A stretch of 32,000 bases of DNA from Promethearchaeota archaeon (GTDB lineage: Archaea > Asgardarchaeota > Lokiarchaeia > Sigyniarchaeales > SOKP01): contig JAUWGH010000002.1 of NCBI GenBank assembly GCA_030606485.1, positions 240,001 through 272,000 on the forward strand, given 5' to 3'. The notes under the pieces are model-generated. The model was not told where the DNA came from, ran no database searches, and saw nothing but the letters and a program-made list of their open reading frames with translations. Shown here one piece after another: positions 13,191-27,818 of this stretch (the stretch's first letter is position 1; every line of letters begins with the position of its first letter). A program made the translations under genes and the position numbers.

Positions 13191-14507
13191 ATGAAAAAAA
13201 TTAAAAATTTTGAAGATGTAGTTTGTCCTTTCTGTGGGACGCTTTGTGATGATTTAAAAATTATTTTAGAAGATAATAAGATTATTGAAGTAGATAATGC
13301 TTGTGCTATAGGAACTGCAAAATTTTTCTCATCGAATGTGTCAGAGCACAGATATACAAAACCTATGATGAGAAATAATGGCAAATTAGAGGAGGTTACT
13401 TGGGATGAAGCATTAAATAAAGCCGCTGAGCTATTAGCAAATGCAAAGAGACCATTATCATATGGATGGAGTTCAACCGAATGTGATGCGCAGCGAAAGG
13501 CTGTTGAATTAATGGAAATTTGTGGTGGAGTTCTTGATAATACCGCATCTGTTTGTCACGGACCTTCACTTCTCGCTATTCAAGATGTTGGTTGCCCAAC
13601 AAGTACTTTGGGTGAATATAAAAATCGGGCAGATTTAGTTTTATTTTGGGGCTCCAATCCGGTTCATGCTCATCCAAGGCATATGAGTCGATATAGTGAC
13701 TTTATTCGCGGTTATTTCAGAGTAGATGGTCATCTTGACCGAACAATAATTGTTGTAGATCCTAGAACAACTCATACCGCCCAAATGGCAGATATGCACA
13801 TTAGATTAAATCCTGGCGAAGATTATGAATTGTTTAATGCTATTAGAGCTTTGTGTCGTGGTGTAGAATTAGATGTTAAAGAAGTAGCAGGAGTTCCTAT
13901 CAAGCAAATTAAAGAGCTTGTTGAAATCCTTAAATCTTGTAAGTTCGGTGTATTATTTTTTGGTTTAGGTTTGACTATGACTAAAGGGAAGCATAGAAAT
14001 GTAGATGCAGGAATAAGTCTTATCAGGGAATTGAATGAGCATACTAAATTTAATTTAACTCCAATGAGAGGTCATTATAATGTTTCAGGAGCAAATATTG
14101 TATTTACATGGTCAACTGGATACCCATATTCCATAGATTTTTCAAAAGATTATCCCCGCTATAATCCAGGCGAATTTTCAGCAGTAGATATATTAAAAAC
14201 AAATGATTTTGATGTTACCTTGATTGTGGCCTCAGACCCCGCTTCAAATTTTCCAAAAGATGCCGTAATCAATATGCTAAAAAAACCTTTAATATCTGTT
14301 GAGCCCCATAAAACGCCGACTTCTGAAATGGCTGATATAGTATTGCCCCCAGCAATTGCCGGGATTGAATGTGAAGGAACAGCATATCGTATGGATAAAG
14401 TGCCAATTAGAATGAGAAAAGTGAAAAATGCTCCCGAAGATTGTATGGCAGATTATGAAATTATTGAAAAATTAATTGAAAAAGTAAAGGAGTTAAAAGG
14501 TGAGTAG
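13191..14507 (+). CDS. fwdB: Formylmethanofuran dehydrogenase subunit B (W/Mo-bis-PGD), canonical Cys form
   Basis: VCPFCGTLCDD...C, ASVCHGPS (metal-ligand Cys, codon TGT), WGSNPVHAHPRH, PMRGHYNV, YNPGE, GTAYRMD. Confidence 0.96.
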   Translation: MKKIKNFEDVVCPFCGTLCDDLKIILEDNKIIEVDNACAIGTAKFFSSNVSEHRYTKPMMRNNGKLEEVTWDEALNKAAELLANAKRPLSYGWSSTECDAQRKAVELMEICGGVLDNTASVCHGPSLLAIQDVGCPTSTLGEYKNRADLVLFWGSNPVHAHPRHMSRYSDFIRGYFRVDGHLDRTIIVVDPRTTHTAQMADMHIRLNPGEDYELFNAIRALCRGVELDVKEVAGVPIKQIKELVEILKSCKFGVLFFGLGLTMTKGKHRNVDAGISLIRELNEHTKFNLTPMRGHYNVSGANIVFTWSTGYPYSIDFSKDYPRYNPGEFSAVDILKTNDFDVTLIVASDPASNFPKDAVINMLKKPLISVEPHKTPTSEMADIVLPPAIAGIECEGTAYRMDKVPIRMRKVKNAPEDCMADYEIIEKLIEKVKELKGE

Positions 14508-15324
14508 AAGAATGGGAAAGATTGAATTAACTTTAAAGAAAGAACCTACTTTTTCTCTTGAAGCAGAATCAATAAGCCCTGATAATTTTAAAGGCAAAAC
14601 ACAAAAAGACATAGCGAATCTAATAATATTTCATGGTAATGAAAAACTTACACTTAAAGATTTTTTTGATATTAAAGGCACGGCTGGTAATAATTTAGAT
14701 GAAATTGAAATTGTGATAAATGGAAATTTGTCAAAAGTAAAAAGAATCGGGGAAAAAATGTCCGGTGGGGCAATTACAATTAATGGAGATGTGGGAATGC
14801 ACGTAGGAAATACAATGAATGGAGGAAAAATTATAGTGAATGGTAATGCTGCGGATTGGGCAGGAGCAATGATGGAAGGAGGCGAATTAGAAATTACAGG
14901 GAATGCGGGGCATTATGTAGGTGCTGCATATAGAGGGAATTGGGAAGGTATGACAAATGGAGTGATAAAAGTTAAAGGAAGTGTTGGATATGAATCAATG
15001 ATTTGGGCTCGAGGTTCTACTCCAAAAAAAAGATTCCCAAAATTAATCTGTGGTTCTGCAGGTCAGTTTTTAGGCCTTCATAATCACGGAGGTATAATTA
15101 TTTGTGAAGGTAATGCGGAAGCTCGAGTTGCTGCCGATCAAGCGCGTGGATTTGTCGTAGTGAAAGGAAAAATCGGAAGGATGATGCCGTCCTTTAAAAA
15201 AATTGGAGAAGTTTCAGAAATCGAATTGCCAGACGGTGAAAAGATCTCAGGTAAGTTTGTTGAATATAGTGGAGATCATGCAACAAGTGCAAAAACTAAA
15301 GGAAGATTATTTGTAGCAAAGTAG
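14500..15324 (+). CDS. fwdC: Formylmethanofuran dehydrogenase subunit C
   Basis: LEAESISPD and GxGxxM..G beta-helix repeats (RIGEKMSGG, HVGNTMNGG, YVGAAYRG). Start is either GTG 14500 (overlapping fwdB) or ATG 14512. Confidence 0.93.
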   Translation: MSRRMGKIELTLKKEPTFSLEAESISPDNFKGKTQKDIANLIIFHGNEKLTLKDFFDIKGTAGNNLDEIEIVINGNLSKVKRIGEKMSGGAITINGDVGMHVGNTMNGGKIIVNGNAADWAGAMMEGGELEITGNAGHYVGAAYRGNWEGMTNGVIKVKGSVGYESMIWARGSTPKKRFPKLICGSAGQFLGLHNHGGIIICEGNAEARVAADQARGFVVVKGKIGRMMPSFKKIGEVSEIELPDGEKISGKFVEYSGDHATSAKTKGRLFVAK

Positions 15325-16590: not shown

Positions 16591-16605
16591 TTTTTTTTGA
16601 TTAAG

Positions 16606-16950
16606 ATGAACCGAAAACTTACTGATAATGAAAAAAAAACACTTAATGAATTTTTAGAATTCTATTCAAAATGTCCGATTTGTAAAAATAAAATTCAAAA
16701 AAGTCATTTATTGGATTTTTATTTTAAAAAAGATCTCGATTCGATAAATCTTAAGAAAAAATTGTTAAATCTAATGAAGCAATCAAAAAATTTTGATGAA
16801 AAAATAATAGTTGGAATACCCTGCTGTATTTGTTTTAGCAAATTTTTTCCTAATAAAAAAATAGTGTATAATCTTGAAATAAATAAAGAATTGTATGCTT
16901 ATTTATCCCCCCAAGACGTAGAACAGATGTTATCTTTTCTTTTTGAGTGA
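16606..16950 (+). CDS. Hypothetical Cys-motif (probable Zn-binding) protein
   Basis: CPIC near the N-terminus and GIPCCIC near the C-terminus. ATG 16606 is in frame with the track's TTG at 16597. Confidence 0.6.
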   Translation: MNRKLTDNEKKTLNEFLEFYSKCPICKNKIQKSHLLDFYFKKDLDSINLKKKLLNLMKQSKNFDEKIIVGIPCCICFSKFFPNKKIVYNLEINKELYAYLSPQDVEQMLSFLFE

Positions 16951-16972: not shown

Positions 16973-18649
16973 TTATATTTTAATTAACTTAATTTTATCA
17001 GTATTTGGTTTCAATGATTCATAGAAGATTGAGCTATATTTTTTATAAAATTCCTTTTTCTTATCCATAATTTTTTCATAATTTATTGTATTAACTGTGC
17101 CTTTTGACCAATAAAGCGCACCTTTATGATTTAGATTTATCTTTTCACCCTGTTTTACAATAATTCCATTCTTAATCACGGTATCTATATCAGAAAAAGC
17201 TTTCTTAATCTCATCTATTTGAGAAGCTGAGTCTTTTTCTTGTAGATTTATATTTAAAATATTAATATCTGCATCGGCTCCAATACCCAAATTTCCTTTT
17301 ATATCTCCCAAGCCCAAAGATTTAGCTGGACTTGCTCGTGTTATGATTATTAAATCATTAATGGAAAAAATATCTTCAATACTGAAGATTGGATTGTCTT
17401 GTTTAAATTCATTATTCATATTTTCCATGAAAGTATTCCGAGAATTCTTATTTAACAACCATGAAATAATTTCCGGAATGTCAGTTAAATGGGCGTAATT
17501 GGGAAAATTTATTGAAAATTGAAGTTTCCATTTATCTTTTATCCTTAAAGCTAAATTTAAAGCATTTGACCATAGCCTGCAATACTCCGAATTATTCTTT
17601 TTTAGTGTCCTGAAAGTTTCAAAATGATCCCCTTCTGATTCAAATGCACCTTTAATTATAGGTGGCGTTTTAGGAGTTTTTTTCTTATCCAAATATTTAT
17701 TAATTAACCTTCGATCCGATGTAATTAGGGGATTTATAGGATTGAAACTTATAAAACCTAAATCAAGGTCAAAATTATCATTAGAATTGAAAAAATTAAT
17801 CAATTTAGTATCGTCGTTAAAAGAATAAGCAGATGCATGAGCTAAATGGAATATTTGAGAACGTTTAATTTTTGTTTGACTAGATTGACTTGGTTTGAGT
17901 CCTTGGGTTTTAATATCCTCTAATACTTTTATAGCATTTAACTCCCCGATCTCTGATTCATATCCATCAATATGAGCATGGATGGAATGGGGTAATCCAA
18001 TTTGCTCAATTGTTTTAGTCATATTTCTGAAAACGTCCAGTGCATTAAAATTATAAAGTCGACCATTTGTCGTTATATCATCTCTGATTTCTTTAAAATC
18101 CCATTCTTCTGCTTCAAAAGGATTATATACCTTTAATCCAAACCCCTTTACTAAATCCAGTAAGTCAGAGATAAATACAGACATCTTTTCAATGTCGCCC
18201 CTCTGATATTCCAATTCAAGAGGCCATAAATTACTGGCATTAATCAACATTGCTTTATCTAAAATTGGAATTTGGCCAAAATTAAAAATAGTTTGTTTGG
18301 CTAAGGATGGAAATACATTTGCCTCAACAATAAAAGTATACCCCTTTTTAAGATATTCTTTTGTTAAGTAATCCAGTGTAAGCCCATTCCAAAATTGTAG
18401 AAAATCTTTATTTTTTGAGCCCAATAAACGGATATTATTAGTTTGTTGTGAGGCAATATGCGTATGAATATCTATTGCGCCTGGAATGACTGTTTTACCA
18501 TTGGCGTCTATAGATTTTGTATCTTTTGAATTAGTGTGTCTGAATTTTTCTACAATTTTTCCTGATTCAATTAATAAATCCTTCTTTTCACCGGAAATAT
18601 TATTTATCGGATCAAAAACAATTCCATTTTTTATAATTAAATTGGACAT
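16973..18649 (-). CDS. Divergent FwdA/FmdA-like amidohydrolase paralog
   Basis: Colinear with FwdA: IIKNGIVFDP, PGAIDIHTHIA, KGFGLKVYNP, GLPHSIHAH, HLAH, ITRASPAKSLGL, KGNLGIGADADI. The TTDxPN motif reads SINFPN. Confidence 0.9.
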   Translation of the reverse strand: MSNLIIKNGIVFDPINNISGEKKDLLIESGKIVEKFRHTNSKDTKSIDANGKTVIPGAIDIHTHIASQQTNNIRLLGSKNKDFLQFWNGLTLDYLTKEYLKKGYTFIVEANVFPSLAKQTIFNFGQIPILDKAMLINASNLWPLELEYQRGDIEKMSVFISDLLDLVKGFGLKVYNPFEAEEWDFKEIRDDITTNGRLYNFNALDVFRNMTKTIEQIGLPHSIHAHIDGYESEIGELNAIKVLEDIKTQGLKPSQSSQTKIKRSQIFHLAHASAYSFNDDTKLINFFNSNDNFDLDLGFISFNPINPLITSDRRLINKYLDKKKTPKTPPIIKGAFESEGDHFETFRTLKKNNSEYCRLWSNALNLALRIKDKWKLQFSINFPNYAHLTDIPEIISWLLNKNSRNTFMENMNNEFKQDNPIFSIEDIFSINDLIIITRASPAKSLGLGDIKGNLGIGADADINILNINLQEKDSASQIDEIKKAFSDIDTVIKNGIIVKQGEKINLNHKGALYWSKGTVNTINYEKIMDKKKEFYKKYSSIFYESLKPNTDKIKLIKI

Positions 18650-18665
18650 TATTTTAATTCCTCTC

Positions 18666-19040
18666 TTATAAATTTTTTATTTTCTCTAATAGATTAGAGA
18701 TTTCTGGAACATCCTTTTCCGTTGGCTCAACTTCAACCTCTAAATTTTTAAAAAGAATTTTATTTTTAAAATCCCCAGTGATTTGATTAGCCCAAATTGA
18801 TTTATTAACGTAAATCATTTCTAAGGGAATAGATTCATCCCAAACAGGCTTTAAAACAACTGAACCATAACTGGTTGTTAATTTTAAATTTACTCCAGAT
18901 TTTGACACAATTTTATTATATGTTTCTGGATGAATTAAGCAAATGGCTATATTATCTTTGAGCTCTTTCTCAGATAATTCATTAATAAGGGTTTTTTGAT
19001 CATATTTTAACTCGCGTATTGTACTTAACAGTAATTTCAT
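18666..19040 (-). CDS. Divergent FwdD-like molybdopterin-dinucleotide-binding domain protein
   Basis: Aligns by eye with the fwdD product in this window (AIC, TTxYG, WAN, EVE), but TGRxIxQG and GMPxxKG are lost. Lies between fwdB' and fwdA'. Confidence 0.75.
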   Translation of the reverse strand: MKLLLSTIRELKYDQKTLINELSEKELKDNIAICLIHPETYNKIVSKSGVNLKLTTSYGSVVLKPVWDESIPLEMIYVNKSIWANQITGDFKNKILFKNLEVEVEPTEKDVPEISNLLEKIKNL

Positions 19041-19042
19041 CT

Positions 19043-20377
19043 TTATTCCTCCATTTTTTGTATTATTTTCAGCAAAATCTGCTCATCAGAAGGCAGATTA
19101 GCTGGTGGATCGATTATTTTTTGCAAATTCATAGGAATATTATCCATTCTATACACAAGTCCATCAGTTTCTATTCCTGTAATAGCCACGGGCAATATAA
19201 CATCAGCTAATTTTGTTGTAGGGGTAATAAAGCAATCAATTGCAATTATGGGTTTTCTTGTTAATTTGGAACTTAGGGTTATCGGTAAATTAGATATTGG
19301 ATCCGAAGCAACGATAATGGACATATCAAATTCGTCATCCTTTATTTTAGAAATTAAGTCTTTATTTGATTCGATAAGTTGGTTATCAGAAAATTCTATT
19401 TGTCCCATTTTACCCAATAAAGATAAAGAAACTTGGATAAAACCATTCATATTATGCCCGGTCATAGGAATAATTGAAAAACGACTTCTCTTAGAAGTTT
19501 CATTAATCAAATCAACCAATTCAATTAAAGCCTTTATAACATTTTCATTAGGATTGGAATTAATTACTCCTTGTCCAAAAAGGATTACACCATTTTCTGA
19601 ACCTTTCAAATTTAGGATAAAACGATTTAAATCTTGCTTATCAACACCAACAAAACCATCAGCTGGTACTTCAGATTTTTCCTTTAAAATCATATCTTTT
19701 AAAAATTGAATTAGCTCCAAATCTTTGCCAGGTTTTAAAGGAATATATAAATCTCGAACACCTGCAACTCCATAAGTCGCGGTTTTTCGAGGATCAACCA
19801 AAATTAACGTTTTTATTTCTCTTCCTGTTATTCTAAATTTACCTCTTGAAAAAATTGTTTTTGTTAAAAACTTTGGGTGGGACTCCTCAGCGTTAGAACC
19901 CCAAAAAATAAACACATCAGCTTTATTAATACATTCATTTAATGTAGTAGAATTGAATCCACTCTCAATAACATTCAAATAAGTTTGACCATGACAAATT
20001 GATGCATTAGACTCAATGAATCCATTTATTTTCTTGGCAAGATGTATTCCATTTATTTGTGCTTCACAAGTTGTATTAATAAAACCATATAGGAGGGGTT
20101 TTTGGGAAGAGTTAATAAGTTCTTTAACTTTATTTAGTGCCTCATCTAAGGATACTTCTTTTAACACACCATTCTTGCGAATTAATGGATTTTTAATACG
20201 ATTTTTGGAATTAATTTCATTTATTTTTTTATAACCTTTCAAACATAAACCATAAGTATCTAAAATTTCATTATTTTTGGAAAATACGATTTGATTATCA
20301 TCACAATATAATGAACATCCAGGACATACAAATCTCTGGATTCTTTCTTGATTATTTGTTCTCTGGGTCATTAGCAT
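19043..20377 (-). CDS. Divergent FwdB-like molybdopterin oxidoreductase paralog
   Basis: VCPGCSLYCDD...CLKG, ASICHG, FWGSNAEESHP, VDPRKTAT, IVASDP, TPTTKLADVILP, VYRMD; colinear with the fwdB product at 13191. Confidence 0.9.
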   Translation of the reverse strand: MLMTQRTNNQERIQRFVCPGCSLYCDDNQIVFSKNNEILDTYGLCLKGYKKINEINSKNRIKNPLIRKNGVLKEVSLDEALNKVKELINSSQKPLLYGFINTTCEAQINGIHLAKKINGFIESNASICHGQTYLNVIESGFNSTTLNECINKADVFIFWGSNAEESHPKFLTKTIFSRGKFRITGREIKTLILVDPRKTATYGVAGVRDLYIPLKPGKDLELIQFLKDMILKEKSEVPADGFVGVDKQDLNRFILNLKGSENGVILFGQGVINSNPNENVIKALIELVDLINETSKRSRFSIIPMTGHNMNGFIQVSLSLLGKMGQIEFSDNQLIESNKDLISKIKDDEFDMSIIVASDPISNLPITLSSKLTRKPIIAIDCFITPTTKLADVILPVAITGIETDGLVYRMDNIPMNLQKIIDPPANLPSDEQILLKIIQKMEE

Positions 20378-20421
20378 TACTCCATTAATTTAAATTATTA
20401 TAATTATTTAATTTGAAGAGG

Positions 20422-20925
20422 TTATTTGGCTGTATAATACTTAATTTCTATTGCATCCCGTGGGCAATACACTTCACATACCCGGCATTCACGCTCTCGT
20501 CCTTCTGCTTCTAACCTTCTACAATATTCCAAATTTAAAAGTTCGGATTTTCCGTTTTTTATTTGAAATAATTGATATTCATTAGGAGGGAAATCTGGTA
20601 ATTTTCCACTTAAAGAATTAGGACAATATCGAGCATTAACAGGACAAATGATCACACATACGCCGCACCCATCACATTTTTCAGTATCAATATCAATATG
20701 TAAGTCTTTTCCCCCCACTCCTACCCCTTCAAATAACTCATTTAATTTATCTAAACTTTGTTTATACTTAGGTTTGAGAAGTGGAGGACAATCTTTTGGC
20801 TGTTTCTCACCCTTAACCAATGCTAAGGCAAACGCCATACATGTAGGCAAATCACATTCCTTACAATTAGTTTTCGGCAATAATTTGTAAATATCCATAA
20901 AGTTTAGTTGCGACATTCTTTCCAT
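20422..20925 (-). CDS. FeS-domain (AcsC/RnfB N-terminal type) fused to a FwdG-like ferredoxin
   Basis: IYKLLPKTNCKECDLPTCMAFA...DCPPL, then CDGCGVCVIICPVNA and C-x11-CRVCEVYCP. Start may be ATG 20916. Confidence 0.8.
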   Translation of the reverse strand: MERMSQLNFMDIYKLLPKTNCKECDLPTCMAFALALVKGEKQPKDCPPLLKPKYKQSLDKLNELFEGVGVGGKDLHIDIDTEKCDGCGVCVIICPVNARYCPNSLSGKLPDFPPNEYQLFQIKNGKSELLNLEYCRRLEAEGRERECRVCEVYCPRDAIEIKYYTAK

Positions 20926-21077
20926 TTAATAAAAACGTTTTTTAAGATTAAAAATCTTGGAAAATATTTTATAAATTGATTTATTATTCTTTTAAATAAA
21001 ATAAAGAATTTAATAGATTAATTTTTTATAATATCCTTAGTAAATTTTTTAAATTAAAATTTATAAGTTGAAATTCT

Positions 21078-21965
21078 ATGACTAAGAAGAAAAAAGAAAA
21101 AAAAGAAGAAAAGAAAAAAGAGAAGAAAGAGAAAAAAGAAAAAAAAGAAGAAAAGGTTGAAACCAAAAAATCTTCAGATAAGGTTTACAAGCGTATTGAA
21201 GTCGACTTTTGGAGAACTTCTGCTCATATGAGCGAGTTAGGACTCCATAAAAGTTTAAAATATTCGGCTAAATCTAGATATTTTACAAAACAATTTGAAA
21301 TCGAAGGAGATATTACTATTGATGGAGATTCAGATAAAAGACAAGTAATTGCATATAATGAGAAGTCTTGGAAAGAAAAAAATTTAGCAGACCGTGATTT
21401 AAAGATAAGAACATTTACCCCTATTAAAGATGATAAAGGTGGAAATTTTACAGGCGGAATTGAATTAAGTACAACAGAATCCTTGATCCAATCATATCAC
21501 ATAAAAGGTGATCCAGGCGTTATTTTAATTGTTAATTTACCTCAGAATAAAAATTTATATAGAATTATAAGATCGAGACGATTAAAAGGATGGAAATTTG
21601 CTTTCCCTTTACTACCAGAGAAAGATAATGAATCATTAAGGGTTTTTGAAATTAAAGGGAAAGTTGGGCTCGGTCTTGATTTCGAAGTCACTGAAAAAGA
21701 AAGAAAGATCGTTGACATTGATGGAAAAAAGCTTAATCTTGGCGGGAAATGGGAGATTGAAATTTTTGATGAAGAATTAAGCAAAAATAAAACTTTCACT
21801 AAAATTCTCACTTTATTTGCATGTGCTTGCAAATTTTTAGAGGTTTCTGAAAAAACAGTAAAAGAACTTTTTAAAAAATTTGATGACCCTAAATCTGATT
21901 TTAAATTCAGCCCAGATAAAGAAGAACTCGACCTCTTTAAGAATCCCAGAAGACTTAAAGCATAA
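21078..21965 (+). CDS. Hypothetical protein with Lys/Glu-rich N-terminus and probable Tubby-C/LURP-one/scramblase-like beta-barrel
   Basis: The C-terminal pattern FEIKGKVGLGLDFEV...IVDIDGKKLNLGGKWEIEI followed by a hydrophobic helix (ILTLFACAC) resembles LURP-one family sequences; recognised by eye only. Confidence 0.5.
   Translation: MTKKKKEKKEEKKKEKKEKKEKKEEKVETKKSSDKVYKRIEVDFWRTSAHMSELGLHKSLKYSAKSRYFTKQFEIEGDITIDGDSDKRQVIAYNEKSWKEKNLADRDLKIRTFTPIKDDKGGNFTGGIELSTTESLIQSYHIKGDPGVILIVNLPQNKNLYRIIRSRRLKGWKFAFPLLPEKDNESLRVFEIKGKVGLGLDFEVTEKERKIVDIDGKKLNLGGKWEIEIFDEELSKNKTFTKILTLFACACKFLEVSEKTVKELFKKFDDPKSDFKFSPDKEELDLFKNPRRLKA
21084..21156 (+). repeat. 73-nt purine-only (A/G) low-complexity tract encoding KKE repeats
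   Basis: No pyrimidine from 21084 to 21156; recurring GAAAAAAAAGAAGAAAAG units. Confidence 0.85.
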
Positions 21966-22084: not shown

Positions 22085-23869
22085 ATGGTAAAAACAATGA
22101 CTCCTAGAGAAGTGGAATTTTTAAATCGATTTATGCAAAAAATGACACAAGTGCATCAAAATCCTAATCAAAGTATTGGCATTTGCATTGAACAATTAGC
22201 GAAGGATAAACCGAGAGATATAGCCTTATATTTTCAAAATGATTCTTGGACTTGGCAAAATTTCAATACGGAAAGCAATAAAATCGCTAATTATTTTCTA
22301 AATTTAGGGCTAAAACACTACGATACTGTTGCAATAATGTTGGAAAATTCTCCTGAATATTTATTCCTTGCGACTGGGATAAATAAAATTCAAGGAATTA
22401 CTGCATTAATTAACATTCATCAAAAAAGGCAAGCCTTAACTCATGCATTAAATATTGTGGAACCTAAGTGGATTGTTGTTGATGGAGATAGTTTACCATC
22501 CTTAAACGAGATTGTGGAAATTCTCCCATACAAGAATGAACAAATTTTTGTTGTTAATAATCCTAAAAATATTCATCATGATTTCATAGAATTACCAAAC
22601 GAACTTAAACATATATCAAAAACTAATCCTAACACCACGCATAATTCAGTAGTAAGGGAGACTGTATATTATATGTTTACCTCAGGCACAACTGGACTCC
22701 CAAAAGCAGTGATTATACAAGGCTTTAAATTATATACTCAAGGATATATATTAGGTATTGCTTTAGCTCAAGTAGATTTTCGTGACATCGTCTATATCGC
22801 AATGCCTTTATATCATAATGTTCCAATAGGAATCGCATGGATGACTGCGATTCTTGCAGGTGCAGCAACGGTATTAAGAAAACGATTTTCCGCATCTGAA
22901 TTCTGGAAAGATATTCAAAAATATCAAGTGACTTTTACAACATATGTAGGAGAAATGCCTCGATACCTTCTCAATCAACCGTCTTCTGAATATGAAATGA
23001 TTCAAAAACAAAAAAAAACACTTAAAAAAATGCTGGGACTAGGACTTCGAAAGGAAATTTGGGAACAATTTCAGTCTCGTTTCCAAATTGAGCATATTTA
23101 TGAATTCTATGGTTTAACTGAGGGTCATCGATCATTATACAATGTGGAGGAAGTTCCTGGAATGATTGGGCGAAATAATCAAGGAGGGGTTGAATTAGCG
23201 AAAGTTGACCCAGAAACAGGCGAATTCTATAAAAATAAAAGTGGTTTTTGTGTAAAATGCAAACCCGGAGATATTGGAATGGCTCTTATTAAAATAGATA
23301 AAAAAACATTTTTTACAGGATACAAAGATAGAGAAAAAACTCAAAAGAAAATAATACATAACGTTTTTAAAAAGAATGACAAGTATTTCAATACAAGTGA
23401 TATGTTAAAGCTCCATGAAGATCTCTGGGTGTCTTTCGCTGATAGATTTGGAGACACATTTCGATGGAAAGGGGAAAATGTTTCCACTTTAGAGGTTGAA
23501 GCAATTTTAAACTCCTATAAAGCAATACATATGTCTGCTGTTTATGGTGTGGGAATTCCCAATACGGAAGGGAGGACGGGCATGGCAGCTATCAAATTAA
23601 ATCCATCAATTAAATTTGAAATTGATGATTTTTCTAGATTTGTTATCGAAGTATTACCAGGTTATTCTATCCCCAAGTTTTTTAGGTTATGTGATGAACT
23701 TGAGACTACTGGACCAGAAAAAATGAAAAAAATAGATCTTAGAAAAGAAGCATATAATATTGAAACAATTAAAGAGCCACTTTTTTTCTGGGATTCAAAG
23801 AAGAAGCAATATATGACACTCGACAATTCGGCATATCAAAAAATAAAGGAAGGAAAAACAAGATTTTAG
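22085..23869 (+). CDS. Long-chain acyl-CoA synthetase, FATP/SLC27-like
   Basis: YMFTSGTTGLPKA, YEFYGLTEG, DRFGDTFRWKGENVSTLEVE, EGRTGMAAI. Confidence 0.93.
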   Translation: MVKTMTPREVEFLNRFMQKMTQVHQNPNQSIGICIEQLAKDKPRDIALYFQNDSWTWQNFNTESNKIANYFLNLGLKHYDTVAIMLENSPEYLFLATGINKIQGITALINIHQKRQALTHALNIVEPKWIVVDGDSLPSLNEIVEILPYKNEQIFVVNNPKNIHHDFIELPNELKHISKTNPNTTHNSVVRETVYYMFTSGTTGLPKAVIIQGFKLYTQGYILGIALAQVDFRDIVYIAMPLYHNVPIGIAWMTAILAGAATVLRKRFSASEFWKDIQKYQVTFTTYVGEMPRYLLNQPSSEYEMIQKQKKTLKKMLGLGLRKEIWEQFQSRFQIEHIYEFYGLTEGHRSLYNVEEVPGMIGRNNQGGVELAKVDPETGEFYKNKSGFCVKCKPGDIGMALIKIDKKTFFTGYKDREKTQKKIIHNVFKKNDKYFNTSDMLKLHEDLWVSFADRFGDTFRWKGENVSTLEVEAILNSYKAIHMSAVYGVGIPNTEGRTGMAAIKLNPSIKFEIDDFSRFVIEVLPGYSIPKFFRLCDELETTGPEKMKKIDLRKEAYNIETIKEPLFFWDSKKKQYMTLDNSAYQKIKEGKTRF

Positions 23870-25256: not shown

Positions 25257-27818
25257 TTAAGCTCCTCCTGCTGTAAAATATATTCTTGATTCTATAGAAC
25301 TCGTTGGAAAGTTAGTGGGAGTGTTTGTGAAATATTGAACATGATATTTTCCAAGAAGAAACAAATTCTCCACTTGATCCGAATAATGTTTGCTATTAGA
25401 ATGACCTCTTTGTCCCGATGGAATTACACTTATCGTATTATTTAAGTTGCTGAAATCAACAATTAATCTCTCTGATGCTCCACCTCTCGCTATTCCAACT
25501 CCACTTCTAATGCTTACTCCAGAAGGAGTTATGCAATATCCACTTCCAGACCATTCAAAAGGACCTACACTTAACGCTTCTAATCCAGTTAAATGACCAT
25601 AGTAAACTGTATGGATATCTCCCCACCTCCATGTTGTCGGATCGCTTGAATCATAGAAGTTTTCGAGCCAATCAATTGTGTCATCTAATGCAGTTAGAAT
25701 GATATTATCCCGGTTTTCAACATATGATGTGCTCATATCATCAAACCAGTGAGAATTTGGAACTTCTTTCATTAAATACTCTAAGATATTTAAACCTGGC
25801 CCACTGGCAGCTTTATATATTTCAATTTCATCATCAAAAGTATAATCATCAAAATAATCGCGCCACTTTCTATAAATAGTGGGAGCTGCTGAATCTTTGT
25901 CCATGACGTATGTCCAATCTTTTAACACTGTAAGAACGTTTCCAATTTTCTCTGGAGGGCTAGAACCATATTTAGTCTCAATAGCATTTATTAAATATGG
26001 AGTAAATGCTTGGGCAGCGCTTGAATTGACATCCGTTTGAATTTCAATCATTTTCTCTACACTGACAGTCCCATCAGGAGTTTTACTTAGCAATTCATTA
26101 ATTCTTCTGGCTCTATAACCGCTAGCATATGAATTTTGCAAGAAATAATTAACATATTCAGGACCAGTAGCTATTTGATTTGCGCTTGCTAAATAATGCT
26201 GAGAAGGATCTAAGGAATTAGGTAGTTCTTCGAATGGAATATATCCAGTCCATTCTCCTTCACCCGCGGAACCATTGTAAGGGAAGGTTCCATCTCCTAC
26301 TCTTATAGGAACTAATCCTGTTGGACGGATAGCTATATGGCCATCAATATCCGCGTAGACTATATTTTGAGCAGGATTTTGAAAATATTTTGATGCTTCA
26401 TCGAAATCAGCCCTATTATGTGCATGACCAAAATTATATAGAGCCAAAAACTCAAGAGTCACATTATTTGCAGTCCATCTAGGCGCCAATACAACATCTC
26501 CAAAAGCTTCTGTGATACTACTGCCAAGAAAATCGTTTAAAACAGGTCCATGGACTGTTTCTTTTACTGTAAATTCTTCTGGATCTTGCCCTTTAACATT
26601 GATGGAATAACTTCTTGTTGTATAAGCAGTCGATGTACCGTCGTAAATATAATGATCTTCATCGATTGAATTATAATAATACCAGTCCATAACATCAGCC
26701 CCAACATTCGTAAATCCCCATGCAACATGTTCGTTATGTCCTACAATTGGTACATTAACACCAGCGAGAGTGAAACAGTAGATATTCAAATCGGTATCGG
26801 AGGAGACTAAATGAGCCTCATACCAAATACCTGGCATATTCCATGCTAAATGCATATCATTACAGAGTATTGGTTTTCCAGTATTACTTAGTGTCCCATC
26901 TACAACCCAATTATTTGAACCTATTATATTTTCATTCTGAAATTCAATCAATTCTCTTTGTGAATCAATTTTTTTTATTTCAGTTAAAAAGTTCGAAAAT
27001 ACAGAGCTCATCGAAGAACTTGGAGTATATCCTGACCAAAAACCACTAGGAGGAGCGTCATACTCGCCATAATTAGGACAAATTGGGATTTGATAAGGTG
27101 TAGGTAAGCCGAAAATCTCAGTATAATTAATAGCACCAAAAGCTTCGAAATTTATTGCTCTATATAAATCACTATATTGCCATGTTAGCATTTCAGACAT
27201 ATACTTCGAATAAACCATAGAATCCAAGGCAGTCCATTCAGTTGGTTCGAAACCTAAAAGATAGTATTCCAATGGTTTTTCATTTCTTAATCTTTGTTGT
27301 TCTAGATAATAATTTACTCCTTCAACATAACTATACAAACTATCTAACATATCAATCTCTCCAGCTTCATCCATTTGAATTAATGCTTGGAGTGATTGAT
27401 TTGCCCAGTATTCCTTTCCAGTTGCAAGATTAAATTTATCCATATTTAAAGCAGAGGGACCAATAATTTCTGATAACCTCCCGCGGACAGATCTCCTTGC
27501 CATATCCATCTGGAAAAATCTATCCTGTGCATGGCAATATCCAAGAGCAAAACTCATATCATTTTCATTAGAAGCATAAATATGTGGTACACCCCATTCA
27601 TCTCGAATAACAGTGACATCAGCGGACAAACCAGGAATTGTATATGTTTCTACTGCTGGGACTTCCCCCGGTACTTTCCATAGTCCATTACCTGGAAATA
27701 AAAGGCTTCCAAGTGGGGGAATTATTCCTAAGTCCAGAGAGAAAAGAGACATTCCGAAAATTGTAATCACGATTACAGTCGTAAGTTTAATAATCAACTT
27801 TTTTTCTATATTTCTCAT
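25257..27818 (-). CDS. Penicillin acylase family Ntn-hydrolase with N-terminal membrane anchor
   Basis: RDEWGVPHIYA, GYCHAQDRFFQMD, GSNNWVV (beta-1 Ser codon at 26918-26916), CNDMH, QNIVYAD, ASANQ, PSGQRG...HYSDQ. Confidence 0.94.
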   Translation of the reverse strand: MRNIEKKLIIKLTTVIVITIFGMSLFSLDLGIIPPLGSLLFPGNGLWKVPGEVPAVETYTIPGLSADVTVIRDEWGVPHIYASNENDMSFALGYCHAQDRFFQMDMARRSVRGRLSEIIGPSALNMDKFNLATGKEYWANQSLQALIQMDEAGEIDMLDSLYSYVEGVNYYLEQQRLRNEKPLEYYLLGFEPTEWTALDSMVYSKYMSEMLTWQYSDLYRAINFEAFGAINYTEIFGLPTPYQIPICPNYGEYDAPPSGFWSGYTPSSSMSSVFSNFLTEIKKIDSQRELIEFQNENIIGSNNWVVDGTLSNTGKPILCNDMHLAWNMPGIWYEAHLVSSDTDLNIYCFTLAGVNVPIVGHNEHVAWGFTNVGADVMDWYYYNSIDEDHYIYDGTSTAYTTRSYSINVKGQDPEEFTVKETVHGPVLNDFLGSSITEAFGDVVLAPRWTANNVTLEFLALYNFGHAHNRADFDEASKYFQNPAQNIVYADIDGHIAIRPTGLVPIRVGDGTFPYNGSAGEGEWTGYIPFEELPNSLDPSQHYLASANQIATGPEYVNYFLQNSYASGYRARRINELLSKTPDGTVSVEKMIEIQTDVNSSAAQAFTPYLINAIETKYGSSPPEKIGNVLTVLKDWTYVMDKDSAAPTIYRKWRDYFDDYTFDDEIEIYKAASGPGLNILEYLMKEVPNSHWFDDMSTSYVENRDNIILTALDDTIDWLENFYDSSDPTTWRWGDIHTVYYGHLTGLEALSVGPFEWSGSGYCITPSGVSIRSGVGIARGGASERLIVDFSNLNNTISVIPSGQRGHSNSKHYSDQVENLFLLGKYHVQYFTNTPTNFPTSSIESRIYFTAGGA

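Follow-up and report, generated by a model that had tools for sequence, protein, structure and literature searches.

What does a second, altered set of fwd genes encode in an archaeon that already carries the canonical set? Formylmethanofuran dehydrogenase (Fwd) is the entry or exit enzyme of the archaeal tetrahydromethanopterin (H4MPT) Wood-Ljungdahl pathway, and the 32,000-nucleotide (nt) stretch of a Promethearchaeota archaeon analysed here, referred to as the window (contig JAUWGH010000002.1, positions 240,001 to 272,000; G000:C1:240001-272000 in our numbering), carries a canonical fwd cluster on its plus strand and, on its minus strand at 20925-16973, a cassette of four genes encoding an iron-sulfur (Fe-S) protein followed by paralogs of FwdB, FwdD, and FwdA, which we term B', D', and A'. 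The genome, of Lokiarchaeial affiliation, comprises 3.75 Mb in 13 contigs, with a G+C content of ~30%. A preliminary description of this DNA regarded the cassette as an intact but systematically remodelled operon and as a candidate undescribed enzyme complex. On balance, we favour the reading that the cassette encodes a working, redox-active metalloenzyme complex that has been neofunctionalised, and that combines the gene set of a wider "G2-B2-D2" paralog family with a FwdA paralog of its own.

The cassette consists of four minus-strand open reading frames without internal stops, at the following coordinates, which are unchanged from the preliminary description:

20925-20422, minus strand: Fe-S subunit ("G2-like"), 167 amino acids (aa)
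20377-19043, minus strand: B', FwdB paralog of the "B2" type, 444 aa
19040-18666, minus strand: D', divergent FwdD-like pterin-cap domain, 124 aa
18649-16973, minus strand: A', FwdA paralog, 558 aa

The genes are full length and tightly spaced, as had been described, with intergenic gaps of 44, 2, and 16 nt, and the purine-rich ribosome-binding sites noted before B' and A' are present as GGAG or GAGG motifs, with such a motif found 5' of D' too. B', D', and A' are homologous from end to end with FwdB, FwdD, and FwdA of the canonical FwdABCD(FG) complex (PDB 5T5I), and share 36%, 26%, and 29% identity, respectively, with the canonical copies of the same genome. The cassette differs from the canonical complex in lacking both FwdC and the polyferredoxin. 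The reported absence of fwdC holds within the cassette, the FwdC of the window being part of the canonical cluster, and no FwdC gene was found in or beside the cassette in any of the 17 loci compared.

Conservation of the cassette

A' is present, at an identity of at least 49%, in about 114 of the 135 genomes of the window's GTDB family, and in none of the 265 other genomes within a sample of 400 Asgard species genomes. More than 120 database relatives of A' share 54-98% identity with it, and in a 50% identity clustering of 1.84 billion proteins the A' clade falls into a single full-length cluster with additional fragments, and no other full-length relative exceeds 35% identity. Across 17 loci representing 13 genera, the order B', D', A' is found in all 17, with the Fe-S gene leading in 15. 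In phylogenetic trees the A' clade and the B' clade each receive a support of 100 in the Shimodaira-Hasegawa-like approximate likelihood ratio test (SH-aLRT), and both sit on long stems outside canonical FwdA and FwdB; a distinct, syntenic, long-branch clade was what the preliminary description had suggested testing for.

That the cassette is a decaying, functionless duplicate of a fwd operon is very improbable. The scores of A' and D', which lie under the cut-offs of their families, are in its favour, as is the somewhat lower conservation of A' across genera (48-57% identity, compared with 62-67% for canonical FwdA). Against decay stand reading frames that are intact in nearly all of the ~114 genomes with A', the strict synteny, and the invariant cofactor ligands described below, together with the ratio of nonsynonymous to synonymous substitution rates (dN/dS), which, measured against a congener with 88% protein identity, came to 0.10 (Fe-S gene), 0.11 (B'), 0.22 (D'), and 0.16 (A'). 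The canonical genes give 0.04 (polyferredoxin), 0.10 (fwdB), 0.11 (fwdC), and 0.20 (fwdD); the cassette is under purifying selection, in a range like that of the canonical fwd genes. The view that the cassette is no relic is thus borne out by dN/dS values of 0.10-0.22 and by a gene order kept over 13 genera.

Two other accounts of the distribution were discarded. Confinement of the whole cassette to one family holds for A' alone, the Fe-S plus B module being widespread. A wide spread among Asgard archaea, as indicated by NCBI labels (Hod-, Thor-, and Hermodarchaeota), was likewise rejected, with one "Hodarchaeota" record having the gene layout of genome G204; because G204 belongs to the window's own GTDB family, submitters' taxon labels were not relied on.

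Cofactor ligands and substrate residues of B' and D'

B' is recognised by the FwdB equivalog model TIGR03129 with 365 bits, above the cut-off of 328, and matches chain 5t5i_B in the PDB with 281 bits. Its [4Fe-4S] site has four Cys residues (C18, C21, C25, and C45), which, like the metal-ligand Cys128, show no variation among 16 orthologs and correspond in the alignment to the Cys residues of canonical FwdB. The residues that handle the substrate are different. At the position of His119 (the roles of Cys118, His119, and Arg288 of FwdB, and of the FwdA site residues, follow PMC6926001 in M. wolfeii numbering), the 16 orthologs have Gln in 12, His in three (that of the window and two others), and Leu in one, whilst at the position of Arg288 they have Gly in 14 and Thr in two, Thr being the residue of the window's genus. 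The Cys-His pair and the Arg are present in all 31 canonical FwdB sequences sampled, from Methanocaldococcus to Bathyarchaeia, and His119 and Arg288 are also kept in both solved-structure FwdB sequences inspected. The formate/CO2-handling pair of FwdB is therefore replaced in the clade, Arg288 throughout and His119 in 13 of 16 members. The preliminary description was right that the Fe-S wiring and most ligands of B' are kept; a Cys-His pair as a feature of the clade did not stand, given Gln in 12 of the 16 orthologs.

D' matches the Pfam family PF01568 (Molydop_binding) with 29.6 bits (cut-off 26.8) and the FwdD model NF042908 with 45 bits, below the cut-off of 175, and shares with FwdD a W-x-N motif around W83/N85. 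B' is 46-53% identical among other genera, A' 47-58%, and D' 27-39%.

The Fe-S subunit

The first gene of the cassette encodes an N-terminal CdhE/RnfB-type [4Fe-4S] domain, of the kind also found in AcsC, fused to a FwdG-like 2x[4Fe-4S] ferredoxin. Residues 16-48 match Pfam PF04060 (54 bits), and the remainder matches Fer4; the best PDB matches of the PF04060 part are the N-terminus of the large subunit of the corrinoid iron-sulfur protein (CFeSP; E 3e-8) and RnfB, and the ferredoxin part also matches the PDB chains of FwdG and FwdF. The N-terminal cluster would be held by C21, C24, C29, and C46, and the ferredoxin clusters by C84, C87, C90, and C94, and by C135, C147, C150, and C154. These 12 Cys residues, a number sufficient for three [4Fe-4S] clusters, are the same in all of 16 orthologs. 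With 57-66% identity among other genera (59-66% by BLASTP), this is the best-conserved gene of the cassette, and in most orthologs the start codon aligns with Met10. RnfB itself was rejected as an identification, the protein having no membrane anchor region and the RnfB match being limited to the N-terminal cluster domain. The gene had been called a FwdG paralog, and its ferredoxin half (residues 73-162) does align at 29% identity with the 85-aa FwdG of the same genome; with three clusters and an extra PF04060 domain, which the canonical complex lacks, the protein as a whole is no plain FwdG of ~80 aa.

Modelling of the Fe-S subunit with B' gave a complex score of 0.86, compared with 0.00 for the best of three controls, a score attained by 58 of 80 solved complexes and by 2 of 110 mismatched pairs. 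The runs share at least 90% of their contacts, with a predicted local distance difference test (pLDDT) value of at least 78 for the partner. In the modelled interface, residues 84-93, 121-126, and 153-157 of the Fe-S subunit lie against residues 40-49 of B', beside the cluster ligand C45, so that the FwdG-like ferredoxin domain is modelled at the cluster of the FwdB-type subunit. The model lends support to binding of B' by the Fe-S subunit, short of showing it, and the result may mirror the likeness of the pair to FwdG-FwdB, which is a solved complex.

The A' subunit

A' aligns with the FwdA model TIGR03121 from end to end (residues 2-545 of 556) with 290 bits, under the cut-off of 393, and with PDB FwdA chains at about 208 bits; it is annotated as formylmethanofuran dehydrogenase subunit A by JGI and as an amidohydrolase by NCBI. 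The dinuclear site of FwdA is formed by His59, His61, carboxy-Lys178, His229, His265, and Asp385 (roles from PMC6926001), and A' retains five of these six ligands, namely the H-x-H motif, two further His residues, and the Lys whose counterpart in FwdA is carboxylated. The sixth differs, with the position of Asp385 occupied by Asn in 19 of 19 clade members examined (Asn381 in the window's A'), and the His that follows it is replaced by Phe in the window's A' and by Phe or Tyr across the clade. Canonical FwdA proteins, including both solved-structure sequences inspected, keep the Asp, and Asn occurs in a few other FwdA-like lineages as well.

Eleven positions are fixed differently between the A' clade and canonical FwdA, most of them beside the strands of the metal site. 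Following H-x-H, for example, Gly is replaced by Ser; following the Lys, Val is replaced by Tyr and Gly-Gly by Phe-Glu; and following the third His, Leu-Gly is replaced by Tyr-Glu. Changes of Gly to Phe and of Gly to Glu are also among them, and the new Glu residues adjoin the metal site. The placement of these clade-fixed changes suggests a remodelled pocket rather than decay. The coordinated change without gene decay that had been proposed is in keeping with these data, the cofactor ligands being invariant and Arg288 of B' and Asp385 of A' being replaced throughout.

Sister to the A' clade are FwdA-like proteins of ~550 aa in which essentially all metal ligands are lost (loci L011/L012 with protein P0135, and representatives P0139, P0143, P0151, and P0181); in the single case looked up, the gene is solitary, with no B or D genes nearby.

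Relatives of the cassette

Clusters of Fe-S, B, and D genes led by a protein of the same PF04060 plus 2x[4Fe-4S] build are found in Methanosarcina, Methanolobus, Methanohalophilus, Methanoperedens, Methanothrix, and Methanoliparum, with the Fe-S and B genes alone detected at two Archaeoglobi loci. In the clusters of Methanosarcinales and Archaeoglobi, the B proteins keep the [4Fe-4S] Cys residues and the metal Cys, as B' does, and show the same losses, with Cys-Gln, Cys-Leu, or Cys-Met in place of Cys-His, and Val, Ala, or Gly in place of Arg288. In an unrooted FwdB tree from a quick search, a branch with an SH-aLRT of 97 divides the sequences into 30 rows, comprising B' and the G2B2-type B proteins (among them the Fe-S-led ones of Methanosarcinales, Methanoperedens, Methanothrix, and Archaeoglobi), and 39 rows, comprising canonical FwdB and its closer relatives. 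Furthermore, the same 12 Cys residues are invariant in an alignment of Fe-S relatives from Methanoliparum, Hydrothermarchaeota, and six Asgard groups. Because B' groups with the Fe-S-led B2 proteins and shares their His and Arg losses, the cassette is, as judged from sequence, the Lokiarchaeial representative of the Fe-S-led "G2-B2-D2" paralog family.

The Methanosarcina cluster of this family was named fwdG2B2D2 in 2010, in M. acetivorans, M. mazei, and M. barkeri, and published without an assigned function, with fwdB2 constitutively transcribed in M. acetivorans (PMC2838876). From gene order and genus we infer that our Methanosarcina locus (L080) is this published cluster. The cassette is accordingly not the isolated novelty that had been suggested, given that B' groups with G-B-D clusters annotated in Methanosarcina since 2010 (PMC2838876). 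Our search of the literature on Asgard and Lokiarchaeota Fwd paralogs turned up no description of the cassette, and yielded the Methanosarcina fwdG2B2D2 naming alone.

The cassette and the fwdG2B2D2 clusters are alike in gene order, in the build of the Fe-S protein, in the retained and replaced residues of B, and in the absence of FwdC. In contrast to those clusters, to whose B proteins B' is only ~30% identical, the cassette adds A', and it is the sole case of an own A subunit among the lineages examined in detail; one bacterial contig has an arrangement of Fe-S, B-like, and A-like genes. The cassette also differs from three Methanosarcinaceae loci in not lying beside an hdrA-polyferredoxin pair. 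At these loci (L062, L072, and L080, of Methanohalophilus, Methanolobus, and Methanosarcina, respectively) the Fe-S, B, and D genes are divergent to an hdrA-like gene of ~800 aa, which has a polyferredoxin gene beside it in at least two of the three. Going by this arrangement, HdrA1-Pfd may be a functional partner of the G2B2D2-type module.

Other archaea have parts of the module. In Borrarchaeum/Kariarchaeaceae and in Freyarchaeia/Jordarchaeia, the same Fe-S protein is encoded directly upstream of a FwdB without Arg288 (Ile and Ala at this position, respectively). These B proteins differ from B' in their canonical-like score (550 bits), their retained Cys-His, and their position on the canonical side of the tree, and their D and A genes are elsewhere or absent, with no D or A nearby in Freyarchaeia/Jordarchaeia. 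In Thorarchaeota and Hydrothermarchaeota, the Fe-S gene is found inside or at the head of a CO dehydrogenase/acetyl-CoA synthase operon. At the Thorarchaeota locus L058 it is followed by a FwdB-like gene of 411 aa, which keeps the [4Fe-4S] Cys residues and has lost the metal Cys, and then by cooC and cdhABC; at the Hydrothermarchaeota locus L059 it lies between cdhD and cdhE, with canonical fwdD-fwdB next.

Probable function of the complex

In the mechanism that we propose, a low-potential donor, such as ferredoxin, would reduce the mobile CdhE-type N-terminal cluster of the Fe-S subunit, from where electrons would pass via the two ferredoxin clusters to the [4Fe-4S] cluster of B', and then to a Cys-ligated tungsten (W) or molybdenum (Mo) bis-pterin site with D' as its cap. 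A' would hold a dinuclear metal site built on a carboxy-lysine. The invariant three-cluster input, the cluster and metal Cys of B', the D' cap, and the ligands of A' argue for a cofactor-bearing, redox-active complex, and the fixed losses of Arg288 and Asp385, together with the loss of His119 in most members and the absence of FwdC, make the canonical route from CO2 via formate to formyl-methanofuran an unlikely one. The complex probably does not run this route; more likely is a related two-electron reaction that uses a different substrate or proceeds in a different way. The role of a sensor or pseudoenzyme scaffold, which had also been considered, is a poor fit with an invariant three-cluster electron-input subunit.

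Several observations weigh against a neofunctionalised enzyme. The window's own B', like those of its genus, retains His129 at the His119 position and thereby the Cys-His pair, and the genus might differ from the rest of the clade. Additionally, we infer the cofactor content, the electron path, and the changed chemistry, cofactor binding being read from the ligands. In ~19 of the ~114 genomes with A', canonical FwdA was not seen, and 10 of these genomes are at least 90% complete; Ftr is present in 5 of 5 and FwdC in 8 of 10 of the A'-only genomes tested, FwdB is mostly kept, and A' could serve as FwdA in them.

These last genomes are also an argument for a second true formylmethanofuran dehydrogenase, an explanation we consider rather unlikely. 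Such an isoenzyme would be coupled to ferredoxin via its own Fe-S subunit, the canonical enzyme being wired to HdrA/MvhD, and might favour the oxidative direction (methyl-group oxidation), with Glu179 and Glu231 of A' taking over the lost acid-base roles and FwdC being shared or dispensable. The Fwd-like subunit set (G-like, B, D, and A), the retention of all cofactor ligands but one, and the new conserved Glu near the metal site of A' are consistent with this, as are the constant occurrence of the cassette in genomes with the H4MPT pathway and the MttB-family gene beside it in 5 of 17 loci, which fits methyl-group oxidation. However, every clade member examined lacks Arg288 and Asp385, and 13 of 16 lack His119, residues that the canonical sequences sampled keep, and FhcA, a formyl-methylofuran hydrolase, also retains the Asp (PMC6926001). 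FwdC is not encoded with the cassette, and the Methanosarcinales relatives, having neither A nor C, would be unable to make formyl-methanofuran alone. The A'-only genomes, moreover, are close in number to the 15 genomes with canonical FwdA and without A', so that both sets fit ordinary gaps in metagenome-assembled genomes and the signal is indistinguishable from them.

A neofunctionalised enzyme is further weakened by the Fe-S-led B-like proteins of Thorarchaeota and Methanoliparum, in which the [4Fe-4S] Cys residues are kept and the metal Cys is lost, a loss suggesting that the whole family may drift to non-catalytic electron transfer. The corresponding explanation, improbable in our view, and more so than an isoenzyme, is that of an electron-transfer or structural module without catalysis at a pterin site, with B' and D' acting as an Fe-S and pterin wire or as a scaffold like FhcB and A' as a metal-binding pseudoenzyme, which might feed or regulate other C1 enzymes. 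The loss of catalytic residues in B' and A', the presence of the Fe-S gene within CO dehydrogenase/acetyl-CoA synthase operons, and the FwdA-like clades near A' that lack any metal ligands would agree with such a module. In contrast, 13 genera show no variation in the metal Cys of B', in the D' cap, or in five ligands of A', and the substitutions are themselves fixed (Asn in A'; Gly or Thr in B'), which looks like selection for a particular active site rather than loss.

The Fhc complex of methylotrophic bacteria (FhcABCD; PDB 6S6Y, PMC6926001) is informative here, being, like the cassette, a Fwd derivative that has given up part of the catalysis and kept the complex. Fhc has lost the redox half, with no pterin motifs, Cys118, [4Fe-4S] domain, or FwdD; what remains is FhcC, Ftr, and an FhcA whose hydrolase site is complete and includes the Asp (PMC6926001). 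The cassette is its mirror image: the redox half is kept together with D', C is absent, and the site of A is altered. B' retains the Cys, the cluster domain, and the D cap, all three of which are gone from FhcB, the known scaffold (PMC6926001). Unlike the Fhc cluster, which includes Ftr (FhcD), the cassette contains no Ftr gene.

We therefore place a neofunctionalised enzyme first, followed by an isoenzyme, a non-catalytic module, and a relic, in that order. Beyond a neofunctionalised enzyme, we tentatively propose, as a possibility of rather low probability, that the G2-B2-D2 family constitutes a distinct W/Mo-pterin class with Cys plus Gln and no Arg, which would not serve formate or CO2, and which in Lokiarchaeia would be coupled via A', with no hydrolytic Asp, to a new reaction of a C1 or N-substrate. 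Direct reduction of carbamate, or of another amide-type carrier adduct, may be an example of such a reaction.

Genomic setting and recurrent neighbours

In the window's genus, the cassette is immediately adjacent to the canonical fwd cluster, which on the plus strand of the window comprises hdrB, hdrA, mvhD, the 85-aa FwdG, the polyferredoxin, fwdD, fwdB, and fwdC. Two further features of the window are:

14500-15324, plus strand: FwdC of the canonical cluster, the single FwdC gene found in the window
20926..21077, minus strand: A/T-rich region between the cassette and a divergent 295-aa gene, read from sequence

Within the A/T-rich region, a TATA-like TTTATAAAA at 20975-20967, ~46 nt 5' of the ATG, is a putative promoter, although such a motif is weak evidence in a genome of 30% G+C. 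The cassette was not covered by any of four sets of metatranscriptome contigs belonging to the same sample or study, which says nothing on its expression either way.

The canonical fwdA (779 bits) lies on the same contig, outside the window and ~4 kb upstream of it (G000:C1:234469-236157), 17 kb upstream of fwdD. A complementation of half-operons, in which the cassette would make good an A-less canonical cluster, was rejected as a necessity, since this fwdA is available at that distance. The gene order at G000:C1:232194-236754 is a mobA-like NTP transferase, a 463-aa hydrogenase small-subunit-like protein (Oxidored_q6), fwdA, and a 186-aa HdrC-like ferredoxin, so that the fwdA and hdrC seemingly missing from the hdrB-hdrA-mvhD-fwd cluster of the window are found paired 17 kb away. 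In four genomes of the same family (G237, G261, G262, and G216), the canonical fwdA match has one in-frame TGA each, with the matches in G237, G261, and G262 exceeding the usual length by ~30-60 nt; possible causes are a sequencing error, an insertion, and codon recoding.

Certain genes recur beside the cassette in other genera, in counts that come from related genomes and are non-independent observations. In four loci the cassette is preceded, in the same direction, by ORP-type genes for a PF02579 protein and two MinD-type ATPases carrying ferredoxin inserts, and in five an MrpORP-like ATPase is divergent from the cassette; the ORP complex has been described previously (PMC6345978). A VWA (CoxE-like) gene is found downstream in 12 of 17 loci, with a MoxR-type AAA ATPase alongside in five, and the MttB-family methyltransferase, present in 1-6 copies per genome, directly follows A' in one of its five loci. 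In the window's genome, the ORP-type, MoxR/VWA, and MttB genes are located elsewhere, with MoxR and VWA in single copy (BLAST with one member of each). A complete ORP-type cluster of this genome, at G000:C5:112708-116554 (L045:6708-10554), consists of DUF5320, PF02579, two MinD-type ATPases with ferredoxin inserts, a second PF02579, and NifU_N, with DUF134 divergent; part of this set is what lies directly upstream of the cassette in four other genera. The neighbours hint at special maturation of a metal site and at a link to methylated-amine metabolism, and the ORP-type (PF02579, MinD-ferredoxin, MrpORP-like) and MoxR/VWA flanks in many genera suggest that the metal site of the complex may require such maturation.

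The genes flanking the cassette in the window are of another kind. The divergent 295-aa gene (21078-21965, plus strand) and a 117-aa gene 3' of A' (16597-16950, plus strand) have no Pfam or NCBIfam match and are absent from the neighbours recurring in other genera. A long-chain acyl-CoA synthetase (22085-23869, plus strand; 623 bits against a cut-off of 625) and an 853-aa protein (25257-27818, minus strand), whose match to the PvdQ type of the penicillin-amidase family is weak, also flank the region, and are unrelated to the cassette in other genera.

Implications

Models of Asgard archaeal metabolism and of the origin of eukaryotes give the H4MPT Wood-Ljungdahl pathway a central place. A strongly conserved second complex derived from Fwd is likely to be counted as plain "Fwd" in metabolic reconstructions, despite the systematic replacement of its catalytic residues. 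Whilst the naming of fwdG2B2D2 in Methanosarcina was already known, its link to the Lokiarchaeial cassette, which A' extends, is new. The shared substitutions, with the Cys kept, the His changed to Gln, and the Arg lost, provide a concrete and testable hypothesis, and the link to the long-unexplained fwdG2B2D2 of Methanosarcinales offers a genetically tractable model in which to address it.

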